Shown one piece after another: positions 1 through 49,275 of a stretch of 51,507 nt of DNA. This DNA is from Colwellia polaris (lineage in GTDB: Archaea > Nanohalarchaeota > Nanosalinia > Nanosalinales > Nanosalinaceae), in the NCBI GenBank assembly GCA_047617785.1, contig JBLGBK010000004.1:1-51507 (forward strand), given 5' to 3'. A program made the position numbers and the translations under genes. Numbering within the stretch: the first letter of the stretch is position 1; every line of letters starts with the position of its first letter. The notes under the pieces are model-generated. The model searched no databases and was not told where the DNA came from. It saw only the letters and a list, made by a program, of their open reading frames with translations.

Positions 1-73
1 TAGCCCCCGCAGGATTCGAACCTGCGTCGAGAGGGCCAGGGCCTCTCATGATTGACCACTACACCAGGGGGCT
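1..73 (-). tRNA. tRNA-Gln (anticodon CTG), no intron; any encoded CCA would lie outside the window
   Basis: Reverse complement folds as AGCCCCC/GGGGGCT acceptor stem with A73, anticodon stem AGAGG/CCTCT with loop CC-CTG-GC, and T-arm GCAGG-TTCGAAT-CCTGC. The A1-U72 pair is typical of archaeal tRNA-Gln. Confidence 0.92.
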
Positions 74-1138: not shown

Positions 1139-1192
1139 GTTGACCTATTTAGAAGCCTTATTCAAATAGTTTATTGAGTAGAAGTAGTGAAG

Positions 1193-1279
1193 CGCCGGAG
1201 CTGGGATTTGAACCCAGGAGACCCGGGATGGGTCACCAGCTTTCCAGGCTGGCACCTTTAGCCACTCAGTCACTCCGGC
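1193..1279 (-). tRNA. tRNA-Ser (anticodon GGA) with long variable arm; CCA not encoded
   Basis: GCCGGAG/CTCCGGC acceptor stem with G73, anticodon arm CCAGC-CTGGAAA-GCTGG, variable arm GACCC/GGGTC, T-loop TTCAAAT. Usual archaeal position downstream of rps10. Confidence 0.95.
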
Positions 1280-28466: not shown

Positions 28467-28601
28467 GATATCCTCTTTCCAAAAACAAGCGTAACGCCGC
28501 CTTATCAACGCTTCCGAAAACTTAAGTGAACCAATTCACAATAAGTACAGTAAGTACCTCGATTCTATTTCTCTTCAGAAGTTAGACTAAGTAAAATTTA
28601 G

Positions 28602-28675
28602 TGGGCCGGACGGGATTTGAACCCGCGACTGCTTGGTTAAGAGCCAAGCGCTCTGCCAGACTGAGCTACCGGCCC
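28602..28675 (-). tRNA. tRNA-Lys (anticodon CTT); CCA not encoded
   Basis: GGGCCGG/CCGGCCC acceptor stem with A73, D-arm GCTC/GAGC, anticodon arm CTTGG-CTCTTAA-CCAAG, T-loop TTCAAAT. Confidence 0.97.
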
Positions 28676-38977: not shown

Positions 38978-39361
38978 TTAAAACCCTACCGAGGAACGGT
39001 TCAAAACCTCCAAGTGATCGCCGCTGCGTATGATCACAACTTCACGCGAGTCATCAAGTAAACGATTCTTCAGCTCCTTATCGTTCGTAGCAATAATATA
39101 ATCTTCCGCGATATCAACAAGCAAATCGTCTACTTCGCCATTACCTTCAGTGCTCAACACTTCAATGTCCTGGGTCTCAAGCAACTTGTCGATCAGTTCC
39201 TTGTACTTTCCGCCTTCGATACTCTTCGCTTCCTGAACAGCATCCTCCAAAGTGTAGATCTGATGGAGAGGGTATATCCGGTCGAACTCCTCGAAAAGCG
39301 GAAATGAAAGCTGGAAAGGAGCGACCAGAAAGTTCGTGTCTAACACGATTTTGTTGTCCAT
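38978..39361 (-). CDS. PIN-domain protein (Fcf1/Utp24-like)
   Basis: IVLDTNFL...VDD...IIATNDKELK motifs; usual neighbour of aIF2gamma and rpoE1. Confidence 0.9.
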   Translation of the reverse strand: MDNKIVLDTNFLVAPFQLSFPLFEEFDRIYPLHQIYTLEDAVQEAKSIEGGKYKELIDKLLETQDIEVLSTEGNGEVDDLLVDIAEDYIIATNDKELKNRLLDDSREVVIIRSGDHLEVLNRSSVGF

Positions 39362-39385: not shown

Positions 39386-40606
39386 TTAAAAACCGGTTTC
39401 GAAAACTTTCTCCAGACTGATTTCAGGTTCTTTCAGCATACCACCTGCTTCAACCTCTTCACGGAACTTCTCAGCATACTCTGAGTTGATCTTACCTATC
39501 AAAAGCGGCCAGACCTCATCTCTCTCACTCCATTCGCTGACTCCTTTCAAGTAGATATGATGCCGCAGCGCTTCACGATTTCTTGCTACTAGGTAGAAAC
39601 TTCTATCTACACTTCCGCCAAGATCGATTAACTTCTCAACTATATCCTTGAAATTCTCTCCGTAATTGTCGGACTCTGCTATCTTGTACGCAGCAACTAA
39701 CCGGAGATGATAGTCAAAATCTTTCTCAGCATAATTTGTATTTGTCTTCTGTTCTCTGTAAAGTGCTCCACCTTCCTCTGTCTGGTCATAGAACGGAGTA
39801 TGAATACCAAGTATAGGAGGGAAGCCGGATTCCTCTCCTGCCTTATATCCGTTATAGGCTCTTAATGCGTGGAATAGCTCGTGCTTGGTCAGCATCTCTG
39901 CCTCTTGCTTTGAGTATTTCCGTTTGTCATCGCTGCTACCGTTCGCAGCTACAACTGTCTGCTCCTCCGGAATATTAAAGCATCCTTCTACCTCACGCAG
40001 CTCGACACTATAATCCATGCCGAGCCGTTTAACTTCCTCCTCAAACATTTCTTTCAAGTCTTCGCCGTCAAGAGTTTTCTCCTTTTCTTCAGGCTTATCC
40101 ATTTCCTCTAGTTTTTCAATAGAGTCTCTGTATGTTTCCTCATCTATCATAGGCCAGATCTTCTCGGAGTATTCACGCCAGCTTTCTTCATCTTCTATGT
40201 TTTCTGAAAGCTCGAGGTATAGCTCTAGTTCACTGATTATCTCGCTGAAGAATTGCTGCATATCCTCCGCAGATAGCTTTTCTGCGCCGTATTTCTTCAT
40301 TTCTTCCTTACTGATGTTTTGAGATGCTTCTCTGCATTGTTCTAGTAAGCTATAGAGTGGTTGAGTATCGTTTGTTTTCTTGAATTTGAACTCGGGATGA
40401 TAGTGTTGCTTTTCGTCTCTGCTTTGCTTGAACCTTTCTCTTTCCTCTTTCTTGTTGGTTATCTGAATGTTCTTGATCCATGAGGTTTTGTCTGTAAGAT
40501 GTCTTACTGCTTCCTTAAGGCCTTCTATCCTGTTTTCTGCTTTGAAATGTATTTCTGTTTCCTCTGTTATCTCTGTTGATTTGAGTTCTTCAGGTTTGAT
40601 TTTCAT
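39386..40606 (-). CDS. DUF1704/MATCAP-like zinc metallopeptidase (putative carboxypeptidase)
   Basis: YHPEFKF, LTKHELFHALRAYNG zinc motif, TEEGGALYRE (QEGLA-like third ligand), HIYLKG and LLIGKI. Confidence 0.75.
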   Translation of the reverse strand: MKIKPEELKSTEITEETEIHFKAENRIEGLKEAVRHLTDKTSWIKNIQITNKKEERERFKQSRDEKQHYHPEFKFKKTNDTQPLYSLLEQCREASQNISKEEMKKYGAEKLSAEDMQQFFSEIISELELYLELSENIEDEESWREYSEKIWPMIDEETYRDSIEKLEEMDKPEEKEKTLDGEDLKEMFEEEVKRLGMDYSVELREVEGCFNIPEEQTVVAANGSSDDKRKYSKQEAEMLTKHELFHALRAYNGYKAGEESGFPPILGIHTPFYDQTEEGGALYREQKTNTNYAEKDFDYHLRLVAAYKIAESDNYGENFKDIVEKLIDLGGSVDRSFYLVARNREALRHHIYLKGVSEWSERDEVWPLLIGKINSEYAEKFREEVEAGGMLKEPEISLEKVFETGF

Positions 40607-40667
40607 GTAAACTTTAGTTTCCGGTTCTAAAGGTTTAAAGTAGTCCCAGAGAAATTATACTCTGAAA

Positions 40668-41618
40668 ATGTACAAAACTGGCTTTATCTGGGATAGCGAA
40701 ATAGCATGGAACCGAGAAAATCCTTTTGATGGGAAAAGAAGTGACGACTTTGCGTACTATACTGAAGAAGGAAGGGGGTACGATCTCGAAATATACATTG
40801 CTAACTATAAATGGTATGAAAAAGGCAAATTAACTAAGGCGTGGTTCTGGAATGGAGAAGAATGGGAGAAAAAACATGACGTAGAACTTGACTTGATATA
40901 CGACAAATTCAAATATGACTTGGATACTAGAAATCTCAAGGAAGAAATGGCAGAGGAACTTCCTGTCCTGAATGATCTTGAACTAGAAGAAATATGTAAA
41001 GACAAGCTTAAGACATACAACTTATTCTCTGAGCGCGTAGGCGAGACTAGAAAAGCTACGCAGGAAAATGCAGAGCAGATGTTTGAGAAATTTGAGAAAA
41101 TTGTTTACAAGCCGCGTTATGGATTTGCAGGGCACGGTGTCGAAGTTCTTCACAGCTTAGAAGAGTTTTCTGAACCTGACAATCCGGAAGACTTCATAAT
41201 ACAGAGGTTCATTGATACCGATGGCTTTGAGGAGTGGGGTGTTGAAGGACCTCATGATCTCCGGACCATCGTGATAAACGGCGAGATACAGGATGGGAAC
41301 TATGTCCGTGTTCCGGATGAAGGATTGATCAGCAATATTAGCCGTGGAGGCCATCAGAAATATATCAGAAGAAGTGAACTACCTGATTCTGTAATTGAGT
41401 TGATAGATGAGATAAAGCAGGAATTTGAGCGTTTCCAACCTGCTATCTTTTCGGTTGACTTCATGTTTGATAAAGATATGAAGCCATGGATAGTCGAGCT
41501 GAACTCCAAACCAGGGACCTACTTCAACCATCCAGAAAAGGATGAAGAGTTGGAGAAAAAGAAAATCAAGAATATCCTGAAAACTCTAAACCTGAAAGCC
41601 GAAGAGTTCTATGGATGA
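40668..41618 (+). CDS. ATP-grasp ligase (RimK/GshB/YheCD-like), paralogue A
   Basis: CKDKLKTY, YKPRYGFAGHGV, IIQRFI, HDLRTIV, SNISRGG, SVDF and VELNSKPG motifs. Confidence 0.88.
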   Translation: MYKTGFIWDSEIAWNRENPFDGKRSDDFAYYTEEGRGYDLEIYIANYKWYEKGKLTKAWFWNGEEWEKKHDVELDLIYDKFKYDLDTRNLKEEMAEELPVLNDLELEEICKDKLKTYNLFSERVGETRKATQENAEQMFEKFEKIVYKPRYGFAGHGVEVLHSLEEFSEPDNPEDFIIQRFIDTDGFEEWGVEGPHDLRTIVINGEIQDGNYVRVPDEGLISNISRGGHQKYIRRSELPDSVIELIDEIKQEFERFQPAIFSVDFMFDKDMKPWIVELNSKPGTYFNHPEKDEELEKKKIKNILKTLNLKAEEFYG

Positions 41619-42552
41619 CAATATAGCCTTTCTTTGGTGGGAAGATGAAGTTAAGTGGGAAAAAGCAGATAAGCCGTTCTCTAAAGAATGGAAGAGCAGG
41701 GACTACGAAGTTTACGCTGATCTTTTCGAGAAAAGAGATATAGATTTCTACGCTGCAGAGTACAGATGGCTGGCGGAAGATTTTCTAAGGAAGGCTTGGT
41801 ACTGGAACGGTGATAAATGGATTAAGAAACACGATATACAGGTAGAGATGGTTTATGACCTTTTCCGTCATGACGAGGAGAAGATGAAGCTAAAGAAAGA
41901 TATACAAAATCACGTGGATTTAGTTAACAAGCCTGACGTAACTGATCTTTGTCAGGACAAATTGAAGACCTATAATAAGTTTTCTAATTATGTCCCCGAA
42001 ACTGCAGAAGCTACAGAGGATAATATAAGAGATCTCCTAGATGAATATGGGGAAGTTGTCCTAAAGCCTCGCTATGGTTCAGCAGGAGAAGGAATTGAAA
42101 GAATTGAATCAATAGAGGAGCTTGAGGGAAGAGAAACTGATGACTTGCTTGTTCAGAGATTTGTGTCCGAGCCTCTTCTTTCTGAATTTGATCTTGAGAA
42201 ATTTCATGATCTTCGCGTGATAATAATTAATGATGAGGTTCTCGGAGGATATTTGCGTCTTCCAGAAAAAGAGGGTTTTCTGAGCAATGTGGCTCAAGGT
42301 GCATCGGTTAAGTATTTGAAAACTGAAGAAATCCCTGAAAAAGTTTACCCTATGATTGACGAGGTATCAGATTGCTTTAGACAGTATTCGCCAGTTATCT
42401 ATACGGTCGACTTCATCTTTGAGGATGATGAACCGTTAATAATGGAACTGAACTCTCAGCCAGGTATATTCTACCATAAGGACGCGACAATGAAGGAGTA
42501 CGAGTATCCATGGATGAAAAAGGTGGTCGAAACACTTGAAGAAAATCTTTAG
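41611..42552 (+). CDS. ATP-grasp ligase (RimK/GshB/YheCD-like), paralogue B
   Basis: CQDKLKTY, LKPRYGSAGEGI, LVQRFV, HDLRVII, SNVAQGA, TVDF and MELNSQPG motifs; shares KAWxWNG..W.KKHD with paralogue A. Confidence 0.88.
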   Translation: MDDNIAFLWWEDEVKWEKADKPFSKEWKSRDYEVYADLFEKRDIDFYAAEYRWLAEDFLRKAWYWNGDKWIKKHDIQVEMVYDLFRHDEEKMKLKKDIQNHVDLVNKPDVTDLCQDKLKTYNKFSNYVPETAEATEDNIRDLLDEYGEVVLKPRYGSAGEGIERIESIEELEGRETDDLLVQRFVSEPLLSEFDLEKFHDLRVIIINDEVLGGYLRLPEKEGFLSNVAQGASVKYLKTEEIPEKVYPMIDEVSDCFRQYSPVIYTVDFIFEDDEPLIMELNSQPGIFYHKDATMKEYEYPWMKKVVETLEENL

Positions 42553-43430
42553 TTTTTCTGAGCTTCCATAGCCCTGTTGTGAAGCCTTTCAACTATTCTT
42601 AGAATAACATCATCGCCAACCAGCTCGTTGATTTCTTCGTGTATTCCAAAGGAGCCATTTATCTCCAATACGTGAGGACCCTCATCGGTGCTTATGATAT
42701 CGGCACCACATATATCGAAACCGGTAGCACGTGCTGCTTTTAAAGCTGCATCTTTCATTTCATCTGTTAATTCAGCTTTCTTACGTTCTCCACCTGCAGA
42801 TATGTTAGAACGCCAGTCGTCTCCTCCACTGCTTCTACTGTATGCTGTTACATAGTCTCCGATGACTATAACTCTGTTATCTGTTCCGGAATGTTCTTTG
42901 AACTCCTGAAGACATATTTCTTGCTCAAAGCTCTTCATTGTATCCATTACAGGTTTTAATTCGTTCTCTCCGGTTGCTCGCATTACTCCTTGACCTCCTA
43001 CTCCTTTTACAGTCTTCATGATTACGGGGTAGCCAAGCCTTCTAGCAGCTTCTACTGCTACATCGGGTGAAAGAGTGTACACTGAGTCGGGTACCTGTAC
43101 TCCGTTTTCTGAAAGTACTTTCATGCTGTAGAACTTATTTGACTCGTAGCTATATGTGTCGTTTTCTGCCTGAGTTACAACGCCGGATTCGTTCATTACT
43201 TCGGTTAGATGTTCGGAAAACATCATGTCGCGGTCGTCTGTTCTTATGTAGACTGCGTCGAACTCAGTTAGATCTGTACCTTTGTATAGTACTTTGGTTT
43301 TTTCGCTGCTATGAACGAATTTGATGCCGTCAATTGGAGCTGCTAGAACAGAATCAAAGATATCTTCTGCACGCTCCATAATGAGTTGGTGGCGTGTTGA
43401 AACATCTCCGTATACGATTCCTAGCTTCAT
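42549..43430 (-). CDS. RimK/LysX-family alpha-L-glutamate ligase
   Basis: NKFYS, YPVIMKTVKGVGGQGV, LQEF, DNRVIVIG, WRSNISAGG, GADII and LEINGSFG motifs. Confidence 0.9.
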   Translation of the reverse strand: MKLGIVYGDVSTRHQLIMERAEDIFDSVLAAPIDGIKFVHSSEKTKVLYKGTDLTEFDAVYIRTDDRDMMFSEHLTEVMNESGVVTQAENDTYSYESNKFYSMKVLSENGVQVPDSVYTLSPDVAVEAARRLGYPVIMKTVKGVGGQGVMRATGENELKPVMDTMKSFEQEICLQEFKEHSGTDNRVIVIGDYVTAYSRSSGGDDWRSNISAGGERKKAELTDEMKDAALKAARATGFDICGADIISTDEGPHVLEINGSFGIHEEINELVGDDVILRIVERLHNRAMEAQKN

Positions 43431-44248
43431 TTTTCTTCAACCTGTTCTTTGATGGTTTCTGCTACTGCTTCAAATGAGCTTTTACCGGAGACATCCTGAT
43501 ACATCTCCAGATCAGGGTTGGGATTTACGTCATATACGTTTTCTCCTACAAGAAGAATTTCTGCAATATCGGTTCCGATTTTATTCACTGTTTTTCGGAC
43601 TATCTCTTTTTGAGTATCTGATATATTTGAGTACTTCAAGTTATCTCGAGTGAAATCCCAGTCCTCACTACCTTCTTTCACCGAAATAATCTGATCTCCA
43701 GCAACTAGGCAATAGTATTTATCACCTTCTTCTAATTCGTGGAAGAGAAGTACGTCCTCCTCGTACTCTACGCCCTCAATAAATCCCTGTATGTCTTCAG
43801 AATCTTCTAATTTCTTTGTTTCAGTCTCCTCGTAGTCTTCAATATTTCTTCCGACTAAAGGTGGCTGAAGCTCTCTCTCAATGTTTCTTCCTGCCTTCTC
43901 CGAAGCAACAACCATGGTCTTTGGAGCAGGTATGTCTTGTTCATGCAAGACATAGTAAAGGTAGTTTTTCTTCGCCATAATAAAGAAGGCTGTTGAGGGA
44001 TAGTTAACAGCTACATTAGCTTCCTCTACCATTTCGAGCATAACGCGGCCGAAAACGGCGTTTTTCTCTGGTAACTCTGCGTAGAGAGCATCATATTCTG
44101 TGATGGATTTATCGCCGAGCTTGAGATCCTTTTTTCCTTGGACGATTTCAGGAGCAACTTTCTCAACGTCTATATGTTCTACCTCGTCAAAGAATTGGTC
44201 TATTTTGTGCTCTTCGCTGTCAGTTACTCTGACCAGTTTTATTTTCAT
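43427..44248 (-). CDS. Degenerate RimK-like ATP-grasp protein
   Basis: VNYP...KKNY...IPAPKT...PPLV...YDVNPNPDL fold pattern with eroded catalytic motifs. Start moved to ATG 44248 after a GGAGGGG SD. Confidence 0.75.
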   Translation of the reverse strand: MKIKLVRVTDSEEHKIDQFFDEVEHIDVEKVAPEIVQGKKDLKLGDKSITEYDALYAELPEKNAVFGRVMLEMVEEANVAVNYPSTAFFIMAKKNYLYYVLHEQDIPAPKTMVVASEKAGRNIERELQPPLVGRNIEDYEETETKKLEDSEDIQGFIEGVEYEEDVLLFHELEEGDKYYCLVAGDQIISVKEGSEDWDFTRDNLKYSNISDTQKEIVRKTVNKIGTDIAEILLVGENVYDVNPNPDLEMYQDVSGKSSFEAVAETIKEQVEEK

Positions 44249-45758
44249 CCCCTCCATCTTGGTTTTCAGGCTCCCAAACCTGAGTAACATTTCCTTCCAT
44301 CTTCCACTTGTCGGTATAGTTCTTGAGCTGCTGAGGCATAACGTCTGATAGAATACGCCCCTGCCTTGTAATCTTTCTCAGTCGTGCTTCCAAAGTCTTT
44401 GAAAGTTCGTCGTAGTAGCTCTTGTCTGTGTAGATAAGCTCGTTTTTAACACGCCAGAATGCTGTTGTCCCTTCTGGCGCGAGCACAAAGTATCCAAGAT
44501 TTTCTCCCTTTAATGACTCCTTCATCGTGTCCTTGCTTACATAATAGACTCCGCCGTCATCGACTTTAGGATCTATGATTAATATTTCATTTTCTTCGAC
44601 TCCGGCGGCTAATACATACTGTTCGCCTTCCTCTGCGAAGATCGGATCTCTTTTGATTCTGCATATTACGAGCGCTCCGTCATTGAACCAGGTCTTGAAG
44701 TCGTCGGCAACGTCTGTAATCTTGTCGTGCTGTATGAAGGCGGTCCTTATTTCCTTGTTAGTCATGTTCTCTATAGCGTTCATAGCTTTGCTGTTCTCGT
44801 TTTCGCCTTCTGCTTCTTCAACTTTCTCCTCTACCTCCTGCTGTGGGTGGAAGTAACCAAATATCTCTAAAGCCATCTCTATACATGCTTCTTGAGTTCT
44901 TTCTGTCTCGGTTTTGAAGTACTCTTTGATCTCTTCCAAGGTATCCAGGTCGCTTTTAGCTCTTTTGAACCGGATACTTGAGTTCATCAGGTTGCTGTTT
45001 GGCGTCATTACTGTGTATCCGTCGTTGGTGTCAACAAGTGTGCTTAGGAGGGAGATCTTTCGTATTTCTCCTACGGCACCGTTTACATCAACCTGTTCGC
45101 CAGGTCTAATTCTTCTTGAATTCTTCAGGTAGATGCCTGCGGCGTAATTCTGGAATAGGTCTTTGAAGCCGTAGAGAAGCAGTCCTACTGCTAGAAGCAC
45201 TACTCCCCATGCTGACGCATATACGAAGGTGTTAATTACGGTTGAGTCGATTCCTATCTGACCCATCGTTATTTGGACTAGTAGCAAGTACAGGAAACCT
45301 TTCAACCCTATTTTAACTAGGTTAAATGACTGTGATGAGAGCCCTAGTTCTCTAAAGTAGTTTTTAGCTCCTACAGTCTTTAGGAAATCTCCTGCGAATC
45401 TTGTTATTATGTTTATGAGTATTACGCCAAGAGCAACTATTAAGGCTACTGAAACGATTTCTGGCAGAATTTCAACAGTCTGTGTGTATATTCCATCTGT
45501 TATACCTGTGTTAAGATATACTAGCGCTGCAGCTATTACTACTGCGTCAAGTCCGTAGCTTATATTACGAACTTTGTTGTTTCTTTCTGTCACCTCTTTC
45601 TTGCTCATTTCATCTTTGCTCCAAAGCTTTCGGAGGCTGAAAGTAGAAGCTTTAACACAGATATGACCTGCTAAAACAATACCTAGCGTGATAGCTATCC
45701 GTATCAGTGTCTGATCTCCGGAAAAAATTGTTGATAAATTGGTTAAGAATTCAATCAT
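44220..45758 (-). CDS. MscS-family mechanosensitive channel fused to a C-terminal C39/papain-like domain
   Basis: Five TM segments, FKDLFQNYAAGIYL...IRPGEQVDV...GEIRKISLLST...TPNS MscS signature, then ACIEMALEIFG...QQEV...GALVI...YVLAAGV...ILIIDP...GVYYV. Confidence 0.8.
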   Translation of the reverse strand: MIEFLTNLSTIFSGDQTLIRIAITLGIVLAGHICVKASTFSLRKLWSKDEMSKKEVTERNNKVRNISYGLDAVVIAAALVYLNTGITDGIYTQTVEILPEIVSVALIVALGVILINIITRFAGDFLKTVGAKNYFRELGLSSQSFNLVKIGLKGFLYLLLVQITMGQIGIDSTVINTFVYASAWGVVLLAVGLLLYGFKDLFQNYAAGIYLKNSRRIRPGEQVDVNGAVGEIRKISLLSTLVDTNDGYTVMTPNSNLMNSSIRFKRAKSDLDTLEEIKEYFKTETERTQEACIEMALEIFGYFHPQQEVEEKVEEAEGENENSKAMNAIENMTNKEIRTAFIQHDKITDVADDFKTWFNDGALVICRIKRDPIFAEEGEQYVLAAGVEENEILIIDPKVDDGGVYYVSKDTMKESLKGENLGYFVLAPEGTTAFWRVKNELIYTDKSYYDELSKTLEARLRKITRQGRILSDVMPQQLKNYTDKWKMEGNVTQVWEPENQDGGDENKTGQSN

Positions 45759-45799: not shown

Positions 45800-46990
45800 T
45801 TATTCTCCCTTGCCTGTAATCTTTCCTTGGCCGATTAGCCGCCAGCGAGAACCTATCTGCCGTGAAATCGCCACTCTATCGCCGACTTCTGCACACACCG
45901 GAACTTTCAAATCTACCTTTACGTTCTTCCCTGCCTGTGTGACAACTCCGGCAGACTTTCCTGTACCGACGTTGAGCATTAAAGGTTCCTTGCCTTTGAT
46001 GTTCTCAACTTCTTCAATTCTGTCAGATCCTACAAGCTTCTCCATTAGATCTACTTCTAGTTCAAGCTTGCTGGTGGTCTCAGGTAGTTCGCCTTCAAGT
46101 CCTAGCCGGTTTCCGGATAGGCCGTCAGACTTTGCCATTGCGGGATCTAGGTTGGTTTCTACAGCCATTAGTCCGCCAGGTGTTCCTTTTTCAACGGTTT
46201 CAGATCCCTGCATGATGCTTTCTACGGTTGTGGTGATGCTTTTCCATTTGCCGTCGATACGGGTTCCTGGACGCATCTCGATTTCGTCGCCGACTTCAAG
46301 TTCTCCTTCGGTGATGCTTCCACCGACTACGCCGCCTTTCAGATCTTCGGCGTTTGTTCCTGGCTTGTTGATATCGAAGCTTCGTGCTACAAGCATCTGC
46401 GGGTCTGTTTCAAGATCTCTTTCGGGTGTTGGGATTTCTTCATCAATTGTTTCTAGAAGTACATCTATATTGACTTCGTGCTGTGCAGAGACGGGTACAA
46501 TCGGTGCATCCTCTGCAACTGATCCTTCAATAAAGTCTTTGATCTGCTGGTAGTTCTCCTTGGCTTCTTCCTCAGATACTAGGTCCACCTTGTTCTGTAC
46601 AATTACAATATTTTCAATGCCTGTCATGTCGAGTGCAGCAAGGTGTTCTCGGGTCTGAGGTTGCGGTACTTCTTCGTTTGCTGCTACCATGAGGATTGCT
46701 CCGTCCATGATTGCTGCTCCGGAGAGAACGTTTGCCATCAGTGTTTCGTGTCCGGGTGCGTCGACAAGCGAAACAGTTCTTACTTCTTCACCGTTTCCAT
46801 CAGTGTTTAGTTCACCGTCGTCATCTCGATAGTATGTGACGTCTGCGTAGCCCAGTCGGATTGTAATCCCTTTCTTCAGCTCTTCACTATGCTGGTCTGT
46901 CCATTTGCCTGAAAGTGCGTTTGTTAGTGTGGTTTTTCCGTGGTCTACGTGTCCTACTAGTCCTATGTTTACTTCTGGTACTTTGCTCAT
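45800..46990 (-). CDS. eif2g: Translation initiation factor aIF2 gamma subunit
   Basis: NIGLVGHVDHGKTT, GITIRLGYA, DAPGHE, QNKVD, RSFDINKPG and RWRLIG motifs. Confidence 0.98.
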   Translation of the reverse strand: MSKVPEVNIGLVGHVDHGKTTLTNALSGKWTDQHSEELKKGITIRLGYADVTYYRDDDGELNTDGNGEEVRTVSLVDAPGHETLMANVLSGAAIMDGAILMVAANEEVPQPQTREHLAALDMTGIENIVIVQNKVDLVSEEEAKENYQQIKDFIEGSVAEDAPIVPVSAQHEVNIDVLLETIDEEIPTPERDLETDPQMLVARSFDINKPGTNAEDLKGGVVGGSITEGELEVGDEIEMRPGTRIDGKWKSITTTVESIMQGSETVEKGTPGGLMAVETNLDPAMAKSDGLSGNRLGLEGELPETTSKLELEVDLMEKLVGSDRIEEVENIKGKEPLMLNVGTGKSAGVVTQAGKNVKVDLKVPVCAEVGDRVAISRQIGSRWRLIGQGKITGKGE

Positions 46991-47306: not shown

Positions 47307-47678
47307 TTATTCTTCTGTTTCTTCAAGAAGCTCTTCTACGGATTTTTCTCCTGATTCAGTTACTTTTGTGTTAAGCTGCTGAATCTGATTGGAGACTGTG
47401 TTTCCGCGGACAGACTTTCTTCTCTTGACGCCATCTTCTGTTTCCTGGATTCCACTGCCGTCTTCAAGAAGCATGCGTTTTCTTTCTGCTCCTTCAACTG
47501 ACTTTCTCATTGGGAAGCCGTCTTTGTCGCTTCCGCCGGTTACTTCCAGTTCGTAACCATCTAGTCCGATGATTCCGCCTGAGAATGTTTCACCAATTTT
47601 TGTTCCGACAATCTGATCTGTGTTTTCTGATTCGATTTGGAAAGTTTGTCCGTCTTGTGTTCCAACTGTAATCTGCAT
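47307..47678 (-). CDS. rps6e: 30S ribosomal protein eS6
   Basis: GLDGYELEVTGGSDKDGFPMR...RRKSVRGN..S..I.QLN motifs. Confidence 0.97.
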   Translation of the reverse strand: MQITVGTQDGQTFQIESENTDQIVGTKIGETFSGGIIGLDGYELEVTGGSDKDGFPMRKSVEGAERKRMLLEDGSGIQETEDGVKRRKSVRGNTVSNQIQQLNTKVTESGEKSVEELLEETEE

Positions 47679-47850: not shown

Positions 47851-49275
47851 GTGAAAAAGATGATGAATATCGTAGGAAGAGTCCTCCAGGTATTTTCTTT
47901 TCTCCTACTCGCTCCATACTTTCTAGCAATATACTTCAACGAACCAGGAAATATCCTATGGTCCTACGCAGTTGCAGCATTCCTGGCGGTAGCCGTCGGA
48001 CGAGCATCCATATATCTAGGAGAAAACGGAGACATGTCGCTGAGAGAAGCCTCTCTGGCAACAGTTATCGGATGGATTTCCGTAAGTCTTGTAGGAGCAA
48101 TACCTTTCCTGAACTTCCTAGGGCTTGAGCAGGCAGTATTTGAATCTGTAGCAGGGATTACAACGACCGGAATGTCGATGTTCTTGGCGCCAGAAAATCT
48201 TCCTCAATCCCTGCTTTTCTGGAGGTCGTTTATGCAGTGGATAGGAGGCTTGGGGATACTTACATTCTTCGTAGCAGTAGTAAGAAACTCAGGAGCAGCA
48301 ACAAGAAAGCTATTCTCATCAGAATCGCATAAAAGCGATCCTGGAAATGTAAGGCCGAGCATGAAAAAAACAGTTATCGACCTATGGAAGATTTACGCAG
48401 GACTGACCTCGATAATGGTGGCAATCTACTTCTTATCAGGAATGAATGTGCTTGATTCGCTGCTACACAGCTTTTCAGTTATATCAACAGGAGGTTTCTC
48501 AACACAGGGTGGAAGTATAGGAGCATTCGATTCGACGCTTATATCGATAGTTACTGTGCCCTTCATGCTTGTAGGAGGGACTAACTTCGTACTAATATAC
48601 TCTCTCATCAAGAGAAAATACAATATATTCGCAGATTCTGAATTCCGGAGCTACATCAAGCTCTTTGGCTTTGCTGTATTCGTTTTCGCTGTTGACAAAT
48701 ATCTTAATGGAAGTTTGGTTCTTGAGAACGTTGTAGAGGTATCATTCACTGCTGCAACTCTGCTTACATCTACAGGTTATGCTATTGAACCGGTTACGGG
48801 GTACTCATTTCCGGTTCAGATACTGATGCTGGGCATAATGTTTGTGGGAGGTTCAATTGGATCTACAGCAGGAGGCCTCAAAGTTTTCCGTTTTAAGGTG
48901 CTTTGGGAGGTAGTAAATACAAGGATAAAAGCATATTCGCTTCCAGAAACAGCTATAAACGAGGTAAGAATAGATAACGAGATACTGGAAAACAATGCTG
49001 TCAGAACCGTTACCTCTCTCTTTTTCCTCTGGGTACTCGTAACCTTTGTAGGTACAGTATCGCTGGCGGTATTTGAAGGCTTCACAATTATCGAAGGGAC
49101 TTCTGCAGTCATCTCTGCTATCAGCAACATGGGCCCGGTGATGTTCTCTGGCGAGCGCTTGATCGAGACTACTTTAGCCTCTAAAATCGTACTGATGGTA
49201 TCGATGCTCGCTGGAAGGCTGGAAATGCTTCCGCTTCTCGCAATTTTTAATAGGCATCTAGCACCAAACCAGTAG
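47851..49275 (+). CDS. trkH: Trk K+ uptake membrane subunit TrkH
   Basis: Pore loops ITTTG, ISTGG, LTSTG and ISNMG; WRSFMQWIGGLG, GSTAGGLK and GRLE motifs. Confidence 0.96.
   Translation: MKKMMNIVGRVLQVFSFLLLAPYFLAIYFNEPGNILWSYAVAAFLAVAVGRASIYLGENGDMSLREASLATVIGWISVSLVGAIPFLNFLGLEQAVFESVAGITTTGMSMFLAPENLPQSLLFWRSFMQWIGGLGILTFFVAVVRNSGAATRKLFSSESHKSDPGNVRPSMKKTVIDLWKIYAGLTSIMVAIYFLSGMNVLDSLLHSFSVISTGGFSTQGGSIGAFDSTLISIVTVPFMLVGGTNFVLIYSLIKRKYNIFADSEFRSYIKLFGFAVFVFAVDKYLNGSLVLENVVEVSFTAATLLTSTGYAIEPVTGYSFPVQILMLGIMFVGGSIGSTAGGLKVFRFKVLWEVVNTRIKAYSLPETAINEVRIDNEILENNAVRTVTSLFFLWVLVTFVGTVSLAVFEGFTIIEGTSAVISAISNMGPVMFSGERLIETTLASKIVLMVSMLAGRLEMLPLLAIFNRHLAPNQ

Follow-up and report, generated by a model that had tools for sequence, protein, structure and literature searches.

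A channel-linked RimK-type ligase, its apparent pseudoenzyme partner and a probably exchangeable ligase/peptidase cassette at a nanohaloarchaeal locus

Contig JBLGBK010000004.1 of assembly GCA_047617785.1, filed under Colwellia polaris and placed by GTDB in the archaeal family Nanosalinaceae (Nanohalarchaeota), belongs to a genome of 787,359 bases in 22 contigs that is 96.55% complete. The whole contig (C4), 51,507 nucleotides long, was analysed and is referred to here as the window. Positions 39386-45758 hold six intact open reading frames (ORFs), which encode an MscS-type channel fused to a papain/C39-like domain, an apparently dead RimK paralogue, an intact RimK-family α-L-glutamate ligase, two YheC/D-TTL-like ATP-grasp ligases (A and B) and a zinc peptidase of the MATCAP/DUF1704 family (Table 1). 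The conserved unit is the triad of channel, dead RimK and RimK; the six genes together are not a fixed system. An earlier note on this DNA, made from the sequence without database searches, had placed six such genes between eif2g and a PIN gene. Their positions and identities agree with the ORF coordinates and with the Pfam and NCBIfam matches.

The genes of the block are closely packed. The stop codon of the dead RimK and the start codon of RimK share a 4-nt overlap, and with any choice of start the dead RimK gene begins before the channel gene has ended. Its true start is likely near 44248-44257; the alignment of its orthologues begins at about residue 15-17. The dead RimK is translationally coupled to both neighbour genes. 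The reading frames of ligases A and B overlap by 8 nt, and ligase A and the peptidase form a divergent pair with a 61-nt spacer between them.

Table 1. Positions of the genes and other features discussed in the text (plain numbers are window positions; G, C and L prefixes denote genomes, contigs and loci).
Feature	Position	Strand	Basis and remarks
MscS-type channel + papain/C39-like domain fusion	44220-45758	-	512 aa; PF00924, E. coli MscS alignment, structure model
Dead RimK paralogue (putative pseudoenzyme)	43427-44290	-	profile-profile comparison with RimK
Intact RimK-family α-L-glutamate ligase	42549-43430	-	TIGR00768, PF08443
YheC/D-TTL-like ATP-grasp ligase B	41611-42552	+	PF14398, PF03133; accessory, variable
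YheC/D-TTL-like ATP-grasp ligase A	40668-41618	+	PF14398, PF03133; accessory
MATCAP/DUF1704-family gluzincin, predicted carboxypeptidase	39386-40606	-	406 aa; PF08014; accessory, variable
eIF2-γ	45800-46990	-	Pfam match; left flank of insertion, conserved
PIN_9 domain gene	38978-39361	-	Pfam match; right flank of insertion, conserved
S6e	47307-47678		
ORF of 103 residues	46987-47298	-	
TrkH-type K+ transporter	47851-49275	+	
MATCAP-like gene in ribosomal cluster	L040:7277-8506, L041:8019-9245, L042:8716-9855, L043:7666-8793		
M24 Xaa-Pro-type peptidase	L045:5755-6918		
ORF of 234 residues	L045:6957-7661		
L10 and L12	G000:C2:81487-83528		
Fifth RimK-family-like ORF	G000:C1:46319-46888 (L055:1354-2397)	- (on L055)	347 aa
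Second small ordinary MscS gene	L033:12835-13722, L034:15248-16168, L039:10785-11672, L058:6693-7007		
tRNA-Gln (CTG)	1-73	-	
tRNA-Ser (GGA)	1192-1279	-	
tRNA-Lys (CTT)	28601-28675	-	

The channel protein has both the pore helix and the β-domain of the MscS family. PF00924 matches the β-domain at residues 200-262 with 41.5 bits (cut-off 20.2), and residues 103-266 align with residues 28-180 of E. coli MscS. The protein consists of five predicted helices, the β-domain, a papain/C39-like domain (residues ~274-428), a conserved helical extension (residues ~430-487) and a disordered acidic tail that is semi-conserved. The canonical C-terminal α/β cage domain of MscS was found neither by Pfam past residue 262 nor in the full-length model (pLDDT 73.3, pTM 0.39), which shows five long helices, the β-domain, a low-confidence linker and the papain-like domain. 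By homology with MscS, this last domain is predicted to be cytoplasmic. The fusion is rare: among 1.84 billion representative proteins, its profile matched 77 at E <= 0.001 and 50 at E <= 1e-30; the strong matches are nearly all proteins of 480-545 residues with the domain at ~250-500, or fragments.

An AlphaFold model of residues 262-512 (mean pLDDT 83.6) has a papain-like fold. Its best Foldseek matches are the Nostoc phytochelatin synthase-like protein Alr0975, the pseudomurein endoisopeptidase PeiR and the peptidase domains of PCAT1 and ComA, with E-values from 7e-06 to 4e-04. The Alr0975 match has an E-value of 6.9e-06, TM scores of 0.48 (query-normalised) and 0.59 (target-normalised) and 15% sequence identity. 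Among the window protein and 36 orthologues, Pfam at E <= 1 finds Peptidase_C39_2 in 34 of 37, C39 in 27, Phytochelatin synthase in 19 and DUF3335 in 13. The best C39_2 E-value among the orthologues is 2e-10; the window copy scores below the gathering thresholds (C39_2, 17.3 bits vs 24; C39, 13.4 vs 22). The orthologue consensus holds the Gln...Cys (YCGPAS) and His (GHYVL) motifs. At the catalytic Gln, Cys, His and Asp columns the window protein has Glu, Thr, Gln and Asp, and the replacement of Cys by Thr and of His by Gln predicts a catalytically dead domain in this genome. The MscS-C39-like fusion proposed in the earlier note is thus right in architecture, but C39 activity is not to be expected here. 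Because the domain is dead here, the window genome is unlikely to use it for PCAT-type processing of leader peptides.

The RimK gene scores 146.6 bits with TIGR00768 (cut-off 143.4) and 115.3 bits with PF08443 (cut-off 21). Its profile matches E. coli RimK (E 1.3e-43) and Pseudomonas RimK (E 2.9e-41) in the Protein Data Bank (PDB) ahead of ArgX (4e-26) and LysX (1.6e-22). The alignment has 41 invariant columns, and the catalytic residues K139, G143, G145, G146, G148, D244, E256 and N258 are invariant in all 37 sequences. The equivalog of the S6--L-glutamate ligase (NF007764) scores 110.4 bits against a cut-off of 331. The bacterial-type S6 is not known from archaea.

The neighbouring dead RimK has no Pfam match and scores 23 bits with the NCBIfam rimK_fam. 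It aligns with RimK by hhalign over its full length (273 columns) with 99.6% probability and an E-value of 1.5e-23. Its Gly-loop columns (143, 145, 146 and 148) are mostly Glu or Asp, with Gly kept at 143 in 8/36 and at 148 in 1/36. The Mg-binding column D244 has Asp in none of the 36 orthologues, with Leu, Arg, Lys or other residues instead. R199 is lost, and the R207-S208-N209 motif is gone, though Arg stands at 207 in 9/36. We read this gene, from its residue losses, as a pseudoenzyme of RimK. A fifth RimK-family-like ORF lies elsewhere in the genome; it scores 53 bits with TIGR00768 in the genome search and has no Pfam match at E <= 0.01.

A predicted complex places the pseudoenzyme between the channel and the active ligase. 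The channel C-terminal domain, RimK and the dead RimK (the scored partner) were each given as an alignment, in three runs and three controls. The model score was 0.91 in the three runs, compared with 0.00 for the best of the three controls. The runs share at least 95% of contacts, and the partner has a pLDDT of 91. When the tool was calibrated, the mark was reached by 58 of 80 solved complexes and by 2 of 110 mismatched pairs, a calibration that does not extend to three-chain jobs with user-made alignments. The modelled dead RimK contacts RimK broadly and also touches the channel domain at its residues 169-198 (~430-459 in full-length numbering), among which T170, T171, W174, S192, K193 and E196 are invariant or near-invariant across the 37 sequences. 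The model supports, but does not prove, that the dead RimK binds both the channel domain and RimK. The contact between RimK and dead RimK may reflect a memory of solved RimK oligomers.

Ligases A and B are paralogues with 37% identity. They score 52.4 and 47.2 bits, respectively, with PF14398 (YheCD, cut-off 26.8), and 40.2 and 32.1 bits with PF03133 (TTL), above the cut-off. Both also pass ATP-grasp_3, RimK and ATPgrasp_ST, and the second passes GSH-S_ATP. Since several ATP-grasp families besides PF14398 are passed, the two are assigned to a superfamily neighbourhood, and to no characterised clade, by their profile matches. Among 29 accessory-ligase relatives, all match the YheC/D-like ATP-grasp, ATP-grasp_3 and GSH-S_ATP families, 28 match RimK and 23 match TTL. 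The catalytic residues K148, D264, E277 and N279 of ligase B are conserved in the 29-member alignment. The closest solved relatives in a PDB profile search are distant: ArgX (3.5e-09), GshB (4.8e-08) and TTLL7 (1.8e-05). TIGR02291 scores 17.5 and 23.9 bits on the two proteins against a cut-off of 314.2. Four ATP-grasp ligases had been proposed for this block. Homology holds for all four; catalytic competence is predicted for three, the dead RimK being the exception. Because the block abuts eIF2-γ, a link of the CDC123 type was also considered; CDC123 is described in passages of PMC4431377 as an ATP-grasp protein that binds eIF2-γ. The link was rejected, with a weak R2K_2 match in 1 of the 29 accessory ligases only, and the flank is better explained as a conserved insertion anchor.

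The peptidase scores 37.5 bits with PF08014 (MATCAP/DUF1704, cut-off 27). A profile of 19 homologues compared with all of the PDB matched human MATCAP alone, with an E-value of 5.9e-13. H242, E243 and H246 of the HExxH motif, and E278 and G279 in EEG, are invariant in all 19 aligned homologues. The motif is HExxH, whereas MATCAP/TMCP is described with HExxxH. The QEGLA equivalog TIGR02421 scores 51.2 bits against a cut-off of 338.65.

Presence of these genes was surveyed in 60 relatives: 36 of the same family, 10 of family f3, 8 of family f4 and 6 in families f2, f5 and f6-f9. A full-length match of the fusion was found in 35/36 same-family genomes, 8/10 of f3, 8/8 of f4 and 0/6 of the others, and a RimK match in 35/36, 9/10 and 8/8 of the first three groups. 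The sole same-family genome with neither match (G028) is 86% complete. By comparison, the peptidase was matched in 21/36 same-family genomes and YheCD-like ligases (E <= 1e-40) in 28/36. In homologue searches for the fusion and RimK, all named matches are labelled nanohaloarchaeal, some as cultivated nanohaloarchaea. For gene mapping we used 36 relatives' loci selected for holding the fusion. The order eIF2-γ, channel, dead RimK, RimK is kept in all 36, and with it the neighbourhood conservation that the earlier note had wished to see checked; the single six-gene system it had proposed gives way to a fixed triad with variable accessory genes. The identical six-gene layout recurs in two loci (L013 and L028), and two others (L024 and L047) have the same layout plus a third accessory ligase. 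An adjacent divergent ligase-peptidase pair is present in the window and in 10 loci (L013, L019-L022, L024, L027, L028, L030 and L047).

The flanks of the block are conserved as well. S6e follows eIF2-γ in 35 of 36 loci (L050 ends before it). On the far side of RimK, where the contig extends so far, PIN is present in 33 and Rpo7 in 32 of the 36. Three genomes without the triad (G045, G040 and G057) have eIF2-γ directly adjoining PIN. It follows that the block was inserted into a pre-existing array of S6e, eIF2-γ, PIN, Rpo7 and S24e.

Between RimK and PIN, the relatives' loci have a variable slot with zero to three YheCD-like ligases and the MATCAP-like gene. Alternatives are a GCS2/YbdK-type carboxylate-amine ligase in 9 loci, a P-loop protein of 340 residues, weakly similar to MobB/CbiA in Pfam, in another 9, zinc hydrolases of the AstE/AspA type and, in family f4, extra RimK-like genes. 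Judged by their families, the slot neighbours are all predicted to make or break amide bonds, the P-loop protein aside. The P-loop protein matched nothing in the PDB under an E-value of 0.18; the ESM Atlas puts it near DUF1611-like clusters, which serves as a lead only. In genome G030, an M24 Xaa-Pro-type peptidase and an ORF of 234 residues without a family replace the MATCAP-like gene in the slot.

The content of the slot tracks the catalytic state of the C39-like domain. The full Gln-Cys-His-Asp set is found in 18/37 loci, and these are exactly the 9 GCS2 and the 9 P-loop loci. The other 19 loci, the window included, are without the catalytic Cys or His and have neither a GCS2 nor a P-loop gene; 15 of them have the MATCAP-like gene at the locus. 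In six independent pairs that differ in catalytic state, taken on well-supported branches of an eIF2-γ tree, the accessory state tracks the catalytic state 6/6 (sign test, p = 0.031). This tree is built from a single gene.

The RimK tree has two deep clades, each with a support of 100, that follow cassette type rather than the eIF2-γ tree. One holds all P-loop-type loci from two families and family f4. The other contains the GCS2 type, with all 15 same-family loci with a dead C39-like domain nested inside (support of 96 together with L049). Cassette types differ within genera g20 (G021 vs G033), g16 (G017 vs G029) and g7 (G008 and G024 vs G036). In genus g21, G034 is of the P-loop type, and gene matches on one contig of G022 place the MATCAP-like gene and two YheCD-like ligases beside RimK. 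We infer that the dead RimK, RimK and the accessory genes move as a cassette between conserved flanks, and the C39 state probably moves with them. The alternative to cassette movement is that old alleles were sorted differently.

Combining these data, we propose a membrane-anchored amide-ligase/peptidase module for the synthesis and trimming of glutamyl peptides in osmotic adaptation, a reading to which we give a probability of roughly 40%. A specialised MscS-type channel would bear a cytoplasmic papain-like domain where the usual MscS cage domain would be. The conserved C-terminal helices of this domain would dock the dead RimK, which would pair with the active RimK-type α-L-glutamate ligase; glutamate would thereby be ligated, at the cost of ATP, right at the mouth of a channel gated by osmotic change. 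A membrane site of ligation is suggested by the tight link, seen across the order, between an active RimK and an MscS-type channel by way of a pseudoenzyme. Further ligation and trimming would fall to the accessory slot, which here encodes the two YheC/D-TTL-like ATP-grasp enzymes and the MATCAP-type zinc carboxypeptidase; such a gene set suggests that short acidic peptides are assembled and cut back. Most probably these are oligo- or poly-glutamyl peptides, either free or on an acidic C-terminal tail, and through them the module may buffer the chief anion of the cytoplasm, or release it, when osmotic conditions change. Gene identities, their conservation, the catalytic residue losses, the co-varying parts and the high score of the complex model are direct results; what is made, which way the flux runs and the part played in osmotic adaptation are inferred. 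Of the earlier proposal that the genes build, trim and release a glutamyl peptide, the general scheme is the best fit to the data, with product, substrate and export as yet predictions.

Part of the case for the osmotic module comes from bacteria, where two data sets tie comparable genes to a drop in osmolarity. In Pseudomonas aeruginosa, according to passages of PMC11957051, three secreted retropepsin-like Rlo proteases are redundant in survival of hypo-osmotic stress. Mutations in RloB (an inactive transglutaminase with seven transmembrane (TM) helices) and RloC (ATP-grasp), encoded in the same operon, rescue the mutant that lacks all three. In Photobacterium damselae at 1% NaCl, parts of PMC10308900 report a 52-fold rise of RimK, a 38-fold rise of RS17020, an ATP-grasp gene annotated GshB, and a 27.5-fold rise of RS17025, the QEGLA/DUF1704 gene whose locus tag comes next.

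Several points weigh against this proposal. The well-known targets of RimK, TTL and MATCAP are the C-terminal tails of proteins rather than free peptides. In four relatives the MATCAP-like gene sits in the L11-L1-L10-L12 ribosomal cluster, away from the RimK locus. Cassette swapping within genera is unexpected for a simple housekeeping osmolyte pathway. The bacterial parallels are analogies, and TIGR02291 reaches only 17-24 bits on the accessory ligases. Product, substrate and transport are predictions. The calibration and the possible memory effect described for the complex model, and the dependence of the paired comparison on one gene tree, count on the same side.

The first two of these points could be explained if the locus writes and erases protein tails, the main rival reading, which we consider somewhat unlikely. 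RimK and the YheCD/TTL-like ligases would add Glu or other residues to acidic C-terminal tails, and the MATCAP-like carboxypeptidase would remove them, in parallel with RimK/RimB on bacterial S6 and TTL/MATCAP on tubulin. Candidate substrates are S6e, L10/P0, uS2, Rpo7 and the channel's own semi-conserved acidic disordered tail. The closest solved relatives of the ligase glutamylate S6, MATCAP is the sole PDB match of the peptidase profile, and TTL-family matches occur in 23 of the 29 accessory ligases. The ribosomal location applies to G013, G007, G043 and G034, where the MATCAP-like gene lies between or beside L10 and L12 in an Spt5-L11-L1-L10-L12-AlaRS cluster; however, small DPANN genomes are dense in translation genes, which makes such a neighbourhood weak evidence. 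S6e, two genes away, ends in ...EETEE in the window and in Glu-Glu in most same-family loci. It does not end in Glu-Glu in L059-L061, three of the four triad-less genomes examined; the fourth, L058, ends in ...EEGE. Among the 592 ORFs of at least 150 aa in this genome, four or more terminal Glu are found only in L10 and a uS2-like protein. But salt-in halophiles often have proteins with acidic tails, Glu-Glu is the ending of 24 of the 592 ORFs, and the candidate substrates were chosen post hoc in an acidic proteome. Tail modification also leaves unexplained the order-wide tie of the ligase pair to the channel, and the GCS2, AstE/AspA and P-loop alternatives, which belong to small-molecule enzyme families. 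In the window genome L10 ends in ...SEEEEE, and L12 has an acidic run followed by GLGNMF; the L12 C-terminus is generally an acidic run followed by GLGxLF or GLGxMF.

A more specific form of the osmotic module, which we regard as unlikely in its details, is a 'glutamate capacitor'. A papain-like ring under the MscS pore would recruit RimK and pseudo-RimK, at rising turgor this pair would convert glutamate, the main organic anion of the cell, to osmotically silent oligo-glutamate, and the cassette hydrolases would later depolymerise or release it. The hydrolase would be the active C39-like domain in some lineages and the MATCAP-like carboxypeptidase where C39 is dead, and the ligase-hydrolase cassette would be exchanged between species like an allele.

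The within-genus swapping would be expected if the cassette ligases made a strain-specific peptide (a signal, antagonist or host-interaction factor) that is released through the channel, with cassettes kept polymorphic as in pherotype or bacteriocin loci. Nanohaloarchaea are obligate episymbionts, which would suit such a factor. The difference of cassette types within four of the multiply sampled genera (g20, g16, g7 and g21), together with RimK clades that follow cassette type and not the eIF2-γ tree, is consistent with this reading, and C39 domains are classically tied to peptide export in passages of PMC10318531. Nevertheless, we think it quite improbable. No precursor peptide gene was seen, the C39-like domain is dead in 19/37 loci, and none of the six proteins matches any PADLOC defence family. 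MscS pores are not known to let peptides through. A defence system was rejected on the same PADLOC result (0/6).

Finally, ordinary LysX/ArgX carrier-protein ligases of lysine or arginine synthesis, or CofF/MptN cofactor glutamyl ligases, are highly improbable and were rejected, in agreement with the earlier note: the NCBIfam scores are weak and far below the cut-offs (MptN, 119.9 bits vs 350; LysX, 109.7 vs 275.6; CofF, 67.3 vs 300), the RimK profile favours RimK over ArgX and LysX by at least 17 orders of magnitude in E-value, and LysW and CofE were not found in this genome by searches that matched the positive-control genomes, although no search was aimed at methanopterin genes.

The proposed osmotic module has features in common with several known systems. 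As in the RimK/RimB (RimA) system of Pseudomonas and with E. coli RimK, a RimK-clade α-L-glutamate ligase is paired with a peptidase that can shorten glutamyl tails. Here, however, a MATCAP-type gluzincin takes the place of the retropepsin, the locus has a dead RimK and a channel fusion besides, and there is no c-di-GMP component. Parts of the literature also describe free poly-α-glutamate as a product of bacterial RimK. RloABC, as presented in sections of PMC11957051, likewise combines a cytoplasmic ATP-grasp ligase, an inner-membrane protein with an inactive papain-superfamily domain and a peptidase, and is linked to hypo-osmotic tolerance. In those sections, RloB is a 7-TM inactive transglutaminase with its domain predicted to be periplasmic, in contrast to the MscS channel and cytoplasmic C39-like domain here, and the Rlo peptidase is a secreted retropepsin. 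The likeness to the window locus lies in layout only. Pfam found no transglutaminase or retropepsin family in the six proteins, and TIGR02291 is far under its cut-off, which argues against membership in RloABC. Bacterial QEGLA/DUF1704 (TIGR02421) genes beside ATP-grasp genes share the peptidase family and the type of neighbour, and in the portion of the Photobacterium data set described above they are induced by low salt; the window peptidase is far under the equivalog cut-off. The conserved bacterial QEGLA/ATP-grasp trio presumably includes a 7TM-transglutaminase.

Three further comparisons concern single parts of the module. In PCAT1 and ComA, too, a membrane transporter carries a C39-type papain-like domain on its cytoplasmic face, but they are ABC exporters and not MscS channels; the window protein is without the catalytic Cys and His, and no double-glycine precursor was seen. 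The adjacent divergent pair of a TTL-like ligase and a MATCAP-family metallopeptidase resembles the TTL/MATCAP tubulin tyrosination cycle. No tubulin substrate is indicated, however, and the ligases match YheC/D, RimK and GshB about as well as TTL. Alr0975, the best structural match of the channel C-terminal domain, handles a γ-glutamyl peptide. Here, by contrast, the domain is part of a channel protein, it lacks activity in the window genome, and the link to GCS2 is found only in other cassette types.

An association of ATP-grasp ligases, peptidases and papain-fold proteins was reportedly described by Iyer et al. in 2009. That such ligases team up with peptidases and papain-fold proteins appears as an established idea in passages of PMC11957051 and PMC10318531. 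The earlier note called the system undescribed, which holds for this architecture; comparable bacterial membrane modules of ligase, peptidase and papain-fold protein exist, such as RloABC. Three elements are new: the fusion of MscS with C39, the putative adaptor formed by the pseudo-RimK, and the swappable cassettes whose content tracks the C39 catalytic state. A literature search returned no paper that combines 'nanohaloarchae' and 'RimK'; with 'mechanosensitive', the passages of one paper concern a different channel-linked gene.

Nanohaloarchaea have genomes of less than 1 Mb with few biosynthetic genes. Most same-family genomes keep three to seven genes of this kind at a fixed site, and retention in such reduced genomes suggests that the module matters for their lifestyle, G028 being the one same-family genome in which the fusion and RimK had no match. 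In the model, the pseudoenzyme appears to be an adaptor between the channel and the active ligase. The loss of C39 catalysis alongside the replacement of partner enzymes is a natural experiment in ligase/hydrolase matching. The locus also provides a prokaryotic setting for the pair of TTL-like ligase and MATCAP-like peptidase and could be a third, archaeal example that ties RimK-type ligases to osmotic change, if the osmotic role holds. The homologues in cultivated nanohaloarchaea make these ideas testable in co-culture.

Some minor observations concern the surroundings of the block. The TrkH-type K+ transporter gene is divergent from S6e and lies beside the locus in 32/36 relatives' loci. Between S6e and TrkH, close to the fusion locus, loci of families f3 and f4 have a further MscS gene, small and of ordinary type, which is present even in L058, the locus of the triad-less G045. 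Among the sequencing runs listed, 17 holders were of the DNA type and none of the RNA type. The 103-residue ORF between S6e and eIF2-γ has no Pfam match, and a homologue is detectable in only 4/36 relatives' loci (L013, L016, L017 and L020). The window has three tRNA genes, all on the minus strand, and that for tRNA-Gln touches the window start.

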